From Phyllobates terribilis (lineage: Eukaryota): a stretch of DNA of 64,000 nt. Positions 40,607-45,156 of the stretch are shown piece by piece. The DNA is taken from contig NW_027362762.1 in the NCBI RefSeq assembly GCF_046119375.1, positions 168,392,001 to 168,456,000 of the forward strand, given 5' to 3'. Numbering within the stretch: position 1 is the stretch's first letter; every line of letters starts with the position of its first letter. The notes beneath the pieces were generated by a model. It saw nothing but the letters and a program-made list of their open reading frames with translations, searched no databases and had not been told where the DNA came from. The position numbers and the translations under genes are program-made.

Positions 40607-41873
40607 TGTGACGCTCTCAGCCCTCCCTGTGAGATGGGGTTACTCGGAGCCGGGTCGGTGTAAGGGGTAGCGGGGGAGGCAGTCGTGGCCTGGACCCGGT
40701 CCGTGCCCAGGGCGGTCACATAAAAGGTTGTCAATGGGCTTTCAGGGTTGAGTGGTATTTTCCGACTACGCCACCTACGGTTTCCGGTGATGAGCACCAG
40801 CGCTGCTTCAGTCCACTGAGGCCGGTGTTACAGGCAGCTAAGATGGGACGGCTCCCCACAGGCGGAGCAGGCCTCAGGGCAGTGTGAGAAAGGATGGTGG
40901 GTGCAATGCCGCGCAGGAAATAACAGGCTGAAGCGGGGTGTGAAGTCATCCAGGGTTTTTACTCACATTCAGATGAACTTTAGCCGCAAAGCTTCCCTCT
41001 GCTCCTCGCGGCGTACTGCGGCCACCAGGAAGGGGGTTCAGCACTTTCCAGGTAGATCAGGAGGACCTGTCGAGACCCCTCTGGTGTGTGTTCCTCTCCT
41101 TGGCAAGTTCTCTCACTAAGTCTTCTCCTGACTGTTTGTGTGGTTACAACGTAGTGTAAGGCTGGGTCCCACTGGATAGACGCAGATAGAGAGATACAGG
41201 TGGCGTAAGCCGCTCCGTTCGTATCCCTCCTGGGATCCACTAAGCCTCCGGGCTTTTCTGACTGAGACGTGAAGTAACAAAGTCAGATATCGGGGGCCGG
41301 TCACCTCTTTTGCAGCAGGAATCCCTCTGACTAGGCCAGAATAAAGAGTACAGGTGGCGTATGCCGATCCATCCGTATCCCCCTGGGATCCTTTTGCCTG
41401 TGGAGCCTTTCTCCTCTGCTCCCCTCCAGGCCTTCTTAGGTAGGGACCTTGACCGGGTAGAGACAGTGGTTAACGCTGACCCGCTCCTCGTCTCAAGGCC
41501 AGAGAACGAGGACCGTATAGGCTGCAGGTTCTAGCAGAAGGCCACAATCAGCGATGAAGATCACAATCAAAGGACCATGAACCTAAGATGGCCATAGATT
41601 AAATATGAAAGAATAAGTGTAACCTAAAACTGTGTGTCCTCCACCCTCACCCACTACATGGTTCCCCCTATCTTTGGTTCCCCCCACCTCTTCTATCCTG
41701 GCCCGGGGCAGCACCCTGGTGCATATAGGCCCCCTACAGGACAGGAGTGGTGTAGTGTTGAGTGGTGAAGTAGGGTCCTGAGAAATGCTCCATCCTCACC
41801 TGGAAGAGGAGATACCACACCTCAAGCTGAGGTGCAGTACCCCTGTGGCGACTGGACCCTCAGGGGCGCCACA
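40607..41873 (-). repeat. 3' LTR of CSD-LTR element 3
   Basis: Direct repeat of 43883-45156 with roughly 20 or more substitutions and two indels (+9, -2) seen by eye. Confidence 0.92.
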
Positions 41874-42414
41874 TTCCCCCCTGGTGAAAAACAGCACGTC
41901 CGCGGACTGCAATAGAGTAAAATACAGGTACAGACTTCAGATTTTTGTATAACAATAACAATCTTCCCATTATGGGAGGTAAGGACACTTCGAACGTTGC
42001 ATGATATATATATAAATATAACATAGTATAAATGTAGAAAAACAGTAAAGAGACATTGTGCATGTAGACAGATCAGTAGAAAACATTGTAGAAAAGTGTC
42101 AGTTCAGCAGCATGAGGGACCTGTCCCAAACCCTCAACGTAGGCCCTGGGGTGGCTGCAGGGCATGGAGATCCTGAGCTGGACCTCAAAAAGAGCCACTC
42201 CAGACAGGTTTTACTTCTGAGGTCTGAGGTAGAAGCGGTTTTTGCATAAAACCAATAGGGAGCACCTAAATAGATGCAAAACTATATACAATAGTGAGTC
42301 TGTCTACTGCCAGTGTCCGCAGGGACAAATGTATCTTCAAACTCAAATCCGGGTGTAAACAAGGAAACAAATAAAAGTTAACTCTTTATATGGAGGTTCA
42401 GCCTCCTGGGCCGC

Positions 42415-43752
42415 TTAGTCAAGGTATCCAAACTGGGGAAAAGGCTCATTTTTGCTGAAAGAGCCTGACCGATTCCTTGTTGGCAGATGGGTGGGGGCAT
42501 CCCCTTTGAACACCCTGTGGACGTCCAGGGCGTACCACCCCTGCTCCCCGTGGTGACGGGTGTAGGACACCAGGTCACCCGGGTAAAGGTTCCGGTCTGG
42601 GTGGCCCTGCTCCAGCTGCGGCTCAACGTCCCGCCGGTTTACAAAAATGTCTCGGTGGAACTGTGGGCTGCAAATGAAGCCCCATACAGCCTCCTGGTGG
42701 AAACGCACAATCAGGCCTTCCTCCCGGGGGCTTGGACGGGTGGCCTCTGCCTGGCGGGCCCGCGACTTTGCGGCCTTGGTACGCACCTCCAGGCGCTCGC
42801 AGCGGACCTCCCTCTGGCGACGCTCCTTGTCAAATTGGAGGAGCTGCTGTTGGCACGTCTCCTCCCTCCTCCGCGCTTCAGCCCGGGTCTCCTGGGGGAA
42901 GCCCATCAGGTCGCCCCCCTGGTTGTCCCAGACATACTCGTCTGCCGCCGGGCAGGTGACTGGAGGTGCAGGGAGCGGCAAAAGCGGAGGCTGCTGCGGA
43001 CCCTCTACTGATGCGTACCAGTCCGGGTTGGGGCAGGTGGACACCCCATGAAACGCAGGACTCTCTGGGCCAGGAGCCGAGAGGCATAGCAGGCCTCCGG
43101 TGACGGCGGTGGCTTGGGCCTCGGCCTCCGGCGCCGATAGCTGCTCCCATATGATGGCGCCCGGGGACAGGGGTGCGGTAAAGAGGTCAAGGAGGCTTTC
43201 CGTACGACCCACGCCCGGGCTGGGGATTTCCGCCTTAACCGCTCCTGGGTTGCGCACGGCCTCCTGGGTTTCCTCCGCCTGGGCTGCGGCCTCCTCGGAC
43301 CGACATGACGAGCTCTGGCGGCGGGCCTGGATCCTCTGTAGCACCGCCTCTCTCCACTCCGCGGCGACCAATCGCTGGGCCTCTTCGACCCTCCGGGTCA
43401 GGTCCTGGGTTTCTCCTCGGAGGAACTCGGCCTCCTCCGGGGTTAGGTGTATTCCCTTCATACCGAGGAAGGTGGCAGCTCGTGGAACAGCGTCGGAGGC
43501 CTCGGAGGACTTCTCTTCTGCTGCGTCCATCTTGACTGCAAGGTAACGTCTCTTTCTCCTCCTTCTTTTGGGGCGGCTCCAGGGCGACTGGCCGACAGGC
43601 ACTCCCAGGGACGTCCCATCCGTTTTGACGGACACTACTATGCGGACAGTCTCTGCTGGAGGGGGCGGTCTGCACTTTTGGCGCCATTGGGGAGCCAGGC
43701 CCACGATGGGAGGACTTTGGTTGCTGTTGTTTTTGCACATAATGGCGTCCAT
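42415..43752 (-). CDS. 445-aa protein with C-terminal cold-shock domain (element 3)
   Basis: Starts MDAIM; shares PPIVG..WRQK..PPPP.ETV, WD..G.DLMGF.QETRA and the CSD (GLIVRFHQEAVWGFI..DIFVN..GDLVSY..GWYALDV, about 42510-42720) with elements 1 and 2. Confidence 0.85.
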   Translation of the reverse strand: MDAIMCKNNSNQSPPIVGLAPQWRQKCRPPPPAETVRIVVSVKTDGTSLGVPVGQSPWSRPKRRRRKRRYLAVKMDAAEEKSSEASDAVPRAATFLGMKGIHLTPEEAEFLRGETQDLTRRVEEAQRLVAAEWREAVLQRIQARRQSSSCRSEEAAAQAEETQEAVRNPGAVKAEIPSPGVGRTESLLDLFTAPLSPGAIIWEQLSAPEAEAQATAVTGGLLCLSAPGPESPAFHGVSTCPNPDWYASVEGPQQPPLLPLPAPPVTCPAADEYVWDNQGGDLMGFPQETRAEARRREETCQQQLLQFDKERRQREVRCERLEVRTKAAKSRARQAEATRPSPREEGLIVRFHQEAVWGFICSPQFHRDIFVNRRDVEPQLEQGHPDRNLYPGDLVSYTRHHGEQGWYALDVHRVFKGDAPTHLPTRNRSGSFSKNEPFPQFGYLD

Positions 43753-43860
43753 TCTTCTTGGGCGGGCGCCACATGGAGTGTATAACAAGAGTCTTTTAGT
43801 GAAAAGGCGCACAGTACCCGCCGGCAATGGGATTTTCTTCTTCCGTTGCTGCGGTCACGC

Positions 43861-43879
43861 AATCCTGCCGACTACTCCA
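43861..43879 (-). promoter_or_regulatory. Primer-binding site, tRNA-Ser, one mismatch (element 3)
   Basis: AATCCTGCCGACTACTCCA (G>T relative to the tRNA), 3 nt from the LTR. Confidence 0.85.
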
Positions 43880-43882
43880 AGT

Positions 43883-45156
43883 TGTGACGCTCTCAGCCCT
43901 CCCTGGGAGATGGGGTTACTCGGAGCCGGGTCGGTGTAAGGGGTAGCGGGGGAGGCAGTCGTGGCCTGGACCCGGTCCATGCCCAGGGCGGTCACATAAA
44001 AGGTTGTTAATGGGCTTTCAGGGTTGAGTGGTATTTTCCGACTACGCCACCTACGGTTTCCGGTGATGAGCACCAGCGCTGCTTTAGTCCACTGAGGCCG
44101 CTGTTACAGGCAGCTAAGATGGGACGGCTCCCCGCAGGCGGAGCAGGCCTCAGGGCAGTGTGAGAAAGGATGGTGGGTGCAGTGCCGCGCAGGAAATAAC
44201 AGGCTGAAGCGGGGTGTGAAGTCATCCAGGGTTTTTACTCACATTCAGATGAACTTTAGCCGCAAAGCTTCCCTCTGCTCCTCGCGGCGTACTGCGGCCA
44301 CCAGGAAGGAGGTTCAGCACTTTCCAGGTAGATCAGGAGCACCTGTCGAGACCCCTCTGGTGTGTGTTCCTCTCCTTGGCAAGGTCTCTCACTAAGTCTT
44401 CTCCTGACTGTTTGTGTGGTTACAACGTAGTGTAAGGCTGGGTCCCACTGGATAGACGCAGATAGAGAGATACAGGTGGCGTAAGCCGCTCCGTCCGTAT
44501 CCCTCCTGGGATCCACTAAGCCTCCGGGCTTTTCTGACTGAGACGTGAAGTAACAAAGTCAGATATCGGGGGCCGGTCACCCCTTTTTCAGCAGGAATCC
44601 CTCTGACTAGGCCAGAATAAAGAGTACAGGTGGCGTATGCCGCTCCGTCCGTATCCCCCTGGGATCCTTTTGCCTGTGGAGCCTTTCTCCTCTGCTCCCC
44701 TCCAGGCCTTCTTAGGTAGGGACCTTGACCGGGTAGAGACAGTGGTTAACTCTGACCCGCTCCTCGTCTCAAGGCCAGAGAACGAGGACCTTGTATATTT
44801 AATAGGCTGCAGGTTCTAGCAGAAGGCCACAATCAGCGATGAAGATCACAATCAAAGGACCATGAACCTAAGATGGCCGTAGATTAAATATGAAAGAATA
44901 AGTGTAACCTAAAAGTGTGTCCTCCACCCTCACCCACTACATGGTTCCCCCTATCTTTGGTTCCCCCCACCTCCTTTATCCCGGCCCAGGGCAGCACCCT
45001 GGTGCATATAGGCCCCCTACAGGACAGGAGTGGTGTAGTGTTGAGTGGTGAAGTAGGGTCCTGAGAAATGCTCCATCCTCACCTGGAAGAGGAGATACCA
45101 CACCTCAAGCTGAGGTGCAGTACCCCTGTGGCAATTGAACCCTCAGGGGTGCCACA
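43883..45156 (-). repeat. 5' LTR of CSD-LTR element 3
   Basis: Starts TGTGACGCTCTCAG on the plus strand and ends GGTGCCACA. Confidence 0.92.

Follow-up and report, generated by a model that had tools for sequence, protein, structure and literature searches.

Long terminal repeat (LTR) retrotransposons that do not move by themselves are normally non-coding or carry a remnant of gag. In frogs, LTR elements without pol have been described in Xenopus under the names 1a11, xretpos(L) and lambda-olt 2-1 (PMC4585706), and in birds the cold-shock domain (CSD) was captured several times by endogenous retroviruses (ERVs), with 46 ERVs concerned (PMC12287698). This article deals with element 3 (E3), an LTR element found in a 64,000-nucleotide stretch of the genome of the poison frog Phyllobates terribilis (RefSeq assembly GCF_046119375.1, contig NW_027362762.1, positions 168,392,001–168,456,000), hereafter the window. 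We consider it rather probable that E3 belongs to a high-copy LTR family which has neither Gag nor Pol, keeps under selection an open reading frame (ORF) for a helix and a CSD, is mobilised in trans by a Gypsy element, and encodes a protein that likely binds its own RNA. A lineage devoid of gag and pol that retains a foreign protein under selection must benefit from it, and an open question thereby becomes testable, namely by what means passengers vie for the particles of their helpers and for what reason CSDs are captured by retroelements again and again.

E3 displays the features of an LTR retrotransposon, namely paired LTRs with TG...CA ends, a primer-binding site (PBS), a polypurine tract (PPT) and a target-site duplication (TSD). 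Its parts, and the two related elements of the window (E1 and E2), are given below in window coordinates.

40603–40606, no strand: left TSD copy, CAAC, from the flank and the 4-bp TSD rule of the family
40607–45156, minus strand: E3, a CSD-LTR element of 4.55 kb
40607–41873, minus strand: 3′ LTR, 1267 bp, from the LTR alignment
41874–41886, minus strand: PPT, CACCAGGGGGGAA, near-identical in an autonomous Gypsy
42415–43752, minus strand: single ORF, 445 amino acids from the first ATG (43752), frame open to 43827, gag/pol homology absent
42517–42720, minus strand: CSD (PF00313), by Pfam match and a five-strand oligonucleotide-binding (OB) fold in the model
42721–42936, minus strand: WD..G.DLMGF block and charged helix of ~49 residues, conserved, under purifying selection
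43546–43572, minus strand: basic patch PKRRRRKRR, from the sequence
43648–43752, minus strand: DAIM/PPIVG/WRQK/PPPP block overlapping the ORF start, likely a cis-acting nucleotide element
43861–43879, minus strand: PBS with one mismatch to the family form, from sequence comparison
43883–45156, minus strand: 5′ LTR, 1274 bp, from the LTR alignment
45157–45160, no strand: right TSD copy, GAAC, from the flank
8423–13346, minus strand: E1, LTRs of 1195 bp with 1 mismatch, TSD TATA
21977–26838, minus strand: E2, LTRs of 1241 bp with 5 mismatches, TSD CTAC

Most of this anatomy had been announced in the original prediction, made from the letters of the window, and it survives closer alignment. The two LTRs, said to differ by about 2% with two indels, align with 1240 matches and 25 mismatches (1.98%), 18 of these being transitions, and with two indel sites (2 and 7 adjoining nt, and 2 nt). 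They were described as strongly unlike those of E1 and E2 in their interior, and similarity is indeed limited to the first ~86 nt (78–80%) and a ~25-nt patch. The PBS, PPT and single-ORF layout were all located, the ORF is open, and every protein block named (DAIM, PPIVG, WRQK, PPPP, the basic patch, EW.RE and the WD block before the CSD) appears in the alignment; re-alignment of the E3 and E1 CSDs again gives 35/72 identical residues. The PBS, TGGAGTAGTCGGCAGGATT, shows the one mismatch expected, relative to TGGCGTAG... in E1 and E2, and the family form is what we take to be the complement of a tRNA-Ser. Two loci examined in a tRNA check turned out to be element PBSs, with a match that extends into a GGTTCGA T-loop; a tRNA-Ala call made by ARAGORN at one of them is spurious. 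The TSD copies of E3, which is inserted in a CR1-type long interspersed nuclear element (LINE), match at 3/4 positions, and exact 4-bp TSDs are found at E1, E2 and loci L031 and L033 (family set TATA, CTAC, CTAG, CCAA).

The protein encoded by E3 is recognisable by its CSD alone, the sole Pfam match (residues 370–437, E 0.0014, 18.9 bits). BLAST against the Gag of the candidate helper described below gave E ≥ 0.9, that is, no homology, and tblastn with five local Gag/Pol queries returned no match in E3, which does not encode protease, reverse transcriptase, RNase H and integrase (PR-RT-RH-IN). On these grounds a decayed gag was rejected as the identity of the ORF. An Atlas search yielded no usable match for the N-terminal part and CSD-type leads only, at 0.87, for the C-terminal part. 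The AlphaFold2 model (mean predicted local distance difference test score 68) has a single helix of 49 residues and, after it, five strands, and the best Foldseek matches of the modelled OB fold are CspA and the CSDs of YBX2 and YBX1 (probability 1.0 for CspA and YBX2). With a broad CSD profile YBX1 is the top match (E 2.7e-12), and the family CSD has the long loop of YBX1; its aromatic binding surface is in part retained and in part altered. The element CSD is a putative binder of single-stranded RNA or DNA.

Selection was examined on the 150-codon helix+CSD block of 11 natural copies, compared in pairs with finite synonymous rates. The ratio of nonsynonymous to synonymous substitution rates (dN/dS) is 0.07–0.37 between copies, with 0.08 for E1–E2 and 0.35 for E3–E1 (dN 0.5–0.6, dS near saturation); purifying selection thus acts on this block when lineages are compared. 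The start of the ORF behaves differently. Over the first 35 codons the proportions of nonsynonymous and synonymous differences are about equal and the latter is low (pN/pS 0.11/0.10 for E1–E2 and 0.33/0.38 for E3–E1), whereas the block before the CSD gives 0.09/0.58 for E1–E2; moreover, a short lineage (L106) retains the N-terminal stretch in a frame other than that of its CSD. For both reasons the DAIM/PPIVG/WRQK block more likely works in cis as nucleotides, perhaps in packaging or transcription, than as part of the protein. The “protein blocks” of the original prediction thus divide into a helix and CSD selected as protein and an N-terminal portion that seems constrained as nucleotides. In the 32 copies used for spacing (a further 18 of the 50 rows, in which the ATG motif is absent, were set aside), the DAIM ATG and LMGF are separated by 23 distinct lengths between 763 and 1816 nt; 17 of these lengths are divisible by three, and the ORF is open in 17/32. 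A second PBS (TGGCGTCACGAACAGG) occurs in some lineages, among them the short one (L100, L105, L106), whose ORF begins at the CSD and in which the pre-CSD helix is absent.

How common are such elements? Searches of the 10.6-Gb genome gave 40,259 first-look candidates with the helix+CSD query, 150 of which were scored, and 33,380 with PF00313, figures that are not copy numbers. Twenty E3-like matches among the 150, examined over 10 kb, all have the E3 layout, be it whole, deleted, interrupted or tandem, and gag/pol matches occur only outside the element span. Seven copies of the E3 family have LTR divergences of 2.9–3.9%, to be compared with the 1 and 5 mismatches of E1 and E2; the subfamilies were therefore active at different times. 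More divergent loci tell the same story: the CSD is matched in 29/30 and gag/pol lies between the LTRs in 0/30, most of these loci being flanked by LTR-like repeats ~2.1–2.5 kb apart and four having no flanking pair in view. The E3-type LTR end with its PBS has 252 exact occurrences in the genome, and the 12 followed for 2.3 kb all lead into E3-family interiors (69–82% identity), with a CSD in 11/12 and gag in 0/12. At one locus (L198) a CSD copy is nested within a gag-pol element. Head-to-tail LTR-interior-LTR arrays were seen at L048, L049 and L220, and another (G000 C3:679724733-679737810) has five PBS junctions 3.26 kb apart.

The PBS itself offers a view that does not start from the CSD. 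Its exact sequence occurs 69,769 times, against 0 for a control, and the first 50 occurrences by position on C1, within one 9-Mb chromosome end, were sorted by their interiors. Twenty-eight are gag-type, 24 with an essentially complete pol and 4 deleted or interrupted (one incompletely examined at its end); 21 have a CSD-family interior (17 with the full block, 2 remnants, 2 deleted), with gag/pol inside 0/21; and one is unclassified. Extrapolated to all occurrences, 21/50 would correspond to ~29,000 CSD-type copies (Wilson interval 20,000–39,000), which at ~4.8 kb each would occupy ~100–190 Mb or 1–2% of the genome, solo LTRs uncounted, a share that bears on genome size. No CSD was found in the 28 gag-type elements, nor in nine further autonomous copies (0/37 in total), and the distance from the end of pol to the PPT is 342–503 nt in the 14 gag-type elements measured, which therefore have no space for a CSD ORF.

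The family of E3, class A, is not alone. Class B (L220–L233, for instance L222:3013-6955) is a second pol-less CSD-LTR family. Its 814-bp LTRs (TGTAAG...CTTACA) are unrelated to those of class A, and its PBS is the one used there; the TSD is 4 bp long, the interior measures 2.3 kb, and the one ORF encodes, besides a basic patch and a charged helix, a CSD that shares 26% identity with that of E3. Gag/pol was found between the LTRs at 0/14 loci, and 0/30 PBS junctions examined, of 44 exact ones, lead into gag. A leader motif agrees between the two classes at 14/15 nt, in frames that differ relative to the CSD, and 16–18 of 300 shuffles reach its score: a marginal hint, and no evidence of common descent. 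A single CSD capture may lie behind both classes. A class C consists of a YBX1-like CSD ORF (YBX1 top match, E 6.7e-6) at L101:4627-5523 and at L169/L234 (C4 ~791.50–791.52 Mb), two copies 17 kb apart and the only close ones among the 150 scored; no LTR pair was seen around the first, and class C may be a relic or a domesticated copy. At L244, L246, L251, L253 and L255, a class B LTR end and PBS are followed by another interior, gag and CSD being absent within 1.5 kb; these are possibly further non-autonomous families.

The unrelated LTRs of classes A and B, and a CSD identity of just 26%, could also suit another origin, in which the ORF was an accessory gene in a lineage of autonomous Gypsy elements that has since become rare or extinct in this genome, classes A and B being separate deletion derivatives of it. 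In full bird ERVs, the place at which a captured CSD sits does vary (PMC12287698). The absence of a CSD ORF from all 37 gag-type elements, the short gap between pol and PPT, and the failure to find a homologue fused to reverse transcriptase or integrase among longer proteins tell against this origin, which we hold to be quite improbable. The original prediction had named the same situation, a CSD found mainly as an accessory ORF of full gag-pol elements, as what would overturn it, and in this genome the gag-type sample shows the opposite. Its preference for a long-lived pol-less lineage over repeated deletion from gag-pol elements holds up, given that same absence, an ORF without gag/pol homology and synonymous sites near saturation between E3 and E1. 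An autonomous ancestor with a CSD ORF may have existed and become extinct.

The split of these dendrobatoid frog families took place tens of millions of years ago. A profile hidden Markov model was run against 1.84 billion protein representatives (8000 candidates scored, 1085 matches, of which the top 150 were inspected), and five of these 150 are single-domain homologues, the remainder being multi-CSD proteins. Two of the five bear the label Anomaloglossus baeobatrachus and one each Phyllobates terribilis, Ranitomeya variabilis and R. imitator; all share the family signature RRDVE.HL..GHP.R, and the named proteins closest to the element protein are those of Phyllobates terribilis. Since they include Ranitomeya and Anomaloglossus, the CSD-LTR lineage likely predates the split of these families, unless horizontal transfer took place. 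No homologue from beyond dendrobatoid frogs appeared among the single-domain matches in the top 150 of 1085 or in the other homologue searches, a weak negative as transposon ORFs are seldom annotated and scoring was limited to 8000 candidates. The architecture, which the original prediction called old, can hence be called so only to the depth of dendrobatoid frogs; no counterpart from fish or other vertebrates appeared among the protein matches inspected. Four frog gene models (P0001, P0152, P0153, P0154) join the CSD block to piggyBac-/PIF-type transposases, R3HCC1 or a MIF4G protein, and are likely chimeric models or cases of exonisation.

If the CSD elements make no Gag or Pol, which element serves them? 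The candidate helper is a Gypsy with a 334-residue Gag (PNMA-like, E 2.6e-5, with a zinc knuckle) and a 1389-residue PR-RT-RH-IN Pol, present in many near-identical intact copies with ~1040-bp LTRs, a 4-bp TSD and no CSD. It has in common with the CSD elements the PBS, the PPT, the TSD length, the LTR 3′ end and the leader, a likeness that is strong for E1 and E2 (69% over ~500 nt spanning LTR end, PBS and leader for E2) and weaker for E3. Because these cis signals are common to both, mobilisation of the CSD elements in trans by a gag-pol Gypsy is highly probable; like reasoning has been applied to Helenus (PMC10886601). Two other candidates were rejected: Gmr1-like/SCAN Gypsy elements, which have a different PBS (TGGTGGCAGCGG...) and LTRs of 450–670 bp, and the best-scoring PNMA family, which has another PBS and beside one locus of which the actual candidate was found.

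The mechanism that we propose follows from this partnership. Element RNA would be co-packaged in helper particles and reverse-transcribed from the primer common to both, and its cDNA would be integrated by the helper integrase. The CSD, probably captured once from a Y-box-type host gene, would coat the element RNA in the germ line in the way that Y-box proteins cover mRNA in storage, and would thereby stabilise it or steer it into helper particles in competition with helper RNA, a step to which we would give slightly less than an even chance. A selfish gain of this kind, falling to the RNA that encodes the protein, would account for its retention by a passenger element. YB-1 is known to aid the metabolism of HIV RNA and the production of virions (PMC6040738). 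A trans-mobilised element whose protein, rather than coating its own RNA, acts in trans as an anti-silencing or decoy factor, against surveillance by PIWI-interacting RNAs or RNA decay or in competition with host Y-box proteins, would fit purifying selection and a very high copy number equally well. High Gypsy expression in poison-frog ova (PMC6278860) and the partly altered RNA-contact residues of the CSD speak in its favour; a benefit in trans would, however, extend to deleted cheaters and to the helper, yet 17/21 CSD-type copies keep the full block and the helper manages without the CSD protein, so that we find this version unlikely. Less plausible still is retention for the benefit of the host in some developmental role. 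Its precedents are zebrafish Bik-1/2, non-autonomous gag-only families required in development (PMC12067270), and the pol-less Xenopus 1a11 and xretpos, expressed in the gastrula (PMC4585706), and class C, a CSD ORF at low copy number around which no LTR pair was seen, would suit it; but selection is observed across many subfamilies that copy actively rather than at a single fixed locus, and broken copies are numerous, as expected of element-level selection, which leaves it very little room. Contigs ~90% identical to 42493–43883 (two) and 42883–43883 (one) exist in three runs only guessed to be RNA and are not counted as evidence.

Several observations pull against the trans-mobilised, RNA-binding passenger that we prefer. 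On the helper side, similarity between E3 and the candidate covers only ~150 nt at 68–70% in addition to the PBS and PPT, and an autonomous element was found neither at the 12 E3-type LTR ends nor at the 30 class-B-type ends; the PBS sample is positional and non-random, drawn as it is from one chromosome end. On the protein side, the CSD of E3 scores under the Pfam cut-off of 27 bits, which E1, E2 and class B exceed. Where YBX1 has a Trp ahead of the first Phe, the element CSD has Lys/Arg, and the His of the DVFVH motif gives way to Asn/Thr. With a class-A-only profile, the scores of bacterial CspA (33.4 bits) and of YBX1 (32.2 bits) are nearly the same, which makes the Y-box origin tentative. 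Nor did the CSD tree place the origin of the element domain: 16/39 inner branches are open, long-branch warnings were raised, L081 is present twice and an intact YBX row is not included, and the tree was left unused for this purpose.

The surroundings of E3 are rich in other mobile sequences. E1 lies between the copies of a 4.9-kb duplication (window 1–4910 and 14246–19155, 99.98% identity). Inspection of ORFs suggests what are presumably a Tc1-like element with 273-bp inverted repeats (45459–47092), an L2-type LINE (47800–50970) and a DIRS-like element with tyrosine recombinase and reverse transcriptase remnants (52500–56000). Elsewhere in the genome, an intronless CSDE1 (Unr) retrocopy, fragmented, partly duplicated and LINE-interrupted, occupies L061–L066 (C1 ~734.44 Mb), the spliced CSDE1 gene being apparently at C2 ~702.8 Mb (L067, L068).

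Pol-less single-ORF LTR elements (Xenopus, zebrafish) and CSD capture in bird ERVs were known; a gag-less, pol-less, CSD-only architecture appears to be new. No description of such a family was found in the literature searched, including frog transposon papers checked for “cold shock” (0), with Repbase, Dfam, the original 1a11/xretpos papers, subscription journals and supplements outside the search. As they have no reverse transcriptase, the CSD elements are missed by domain-based LTR classification. Taken at its widest, and tentatively, since we think it somewhat less probable than not as a whole, this would be a class of coding satellite retrotransposons that gave up Gag and Pol, captured a Y-box-type domain once, maintained it by selection over tens of millions of years on at least two unrelated LTR types, wins helper packaging through its protein, has reached about the copy number of its helper and makes up a measurable share of giant poison-frog genomes.

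Close in design are the Xenopus elements, LTR elements of frogs that, like E3, possess a single ORF and are devoid of pol. E3 is set apart by their description, the 71-kDa ORF of 1a11 being called Gag-like and xretpos being said to use tRNA-Arg, with no mention of a CSD (PMC4585706). Zebrafish bhikhari (Bik-1/2) and chicken ENS-1/ERNI are likewise non-autonomous LTR families with one coding ORF, but they are ERV-derived and Bik encodes Gag, whereas the ORF of E3 is not Gag and its helper is a Gypsy (PMC12067270). TRIMs (miniature retrotransposons with terminal repeats) and Helenus share with E3 the LTR-PBS-PPT-LTR order, the PBS of an autonomous Gypsy, a 4-bp TSD in animals and tandem arrays (PMC10886601). 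The E3 family differs by its 4.6–5 kb, its LTRs of 1.2–1.3 kb and its conserved ORF, and Rfam gave 0 matches in E3 when a small-RNA-derived LTR, tRNA- or 5S-like, was looked for; membership of TRIM/TRIMp3 (Cassandra, Helenus, Ajax) was ruled out for an element that is 4.55 kb long, coding under selection and Rfam-negative. With YBX1 and YBX2 the element protein shares the CSD fold, a long loop after the DVFV motif and neighbouring charged regions, and departs from them in being just ~20% identical in structural alignments, in its altered Trp/His positions and in the charged helix before the CSD. Finally, the bird CSD-ERVs also place a host-type CSD within an LTR retroelement (PMC12287698), but they bear reverse transcriptase and result from sporadic captures, whereas in the E3 family the CSD ORF is the sole gene, is under selection and has a copy number estimated in the tens of thousands.

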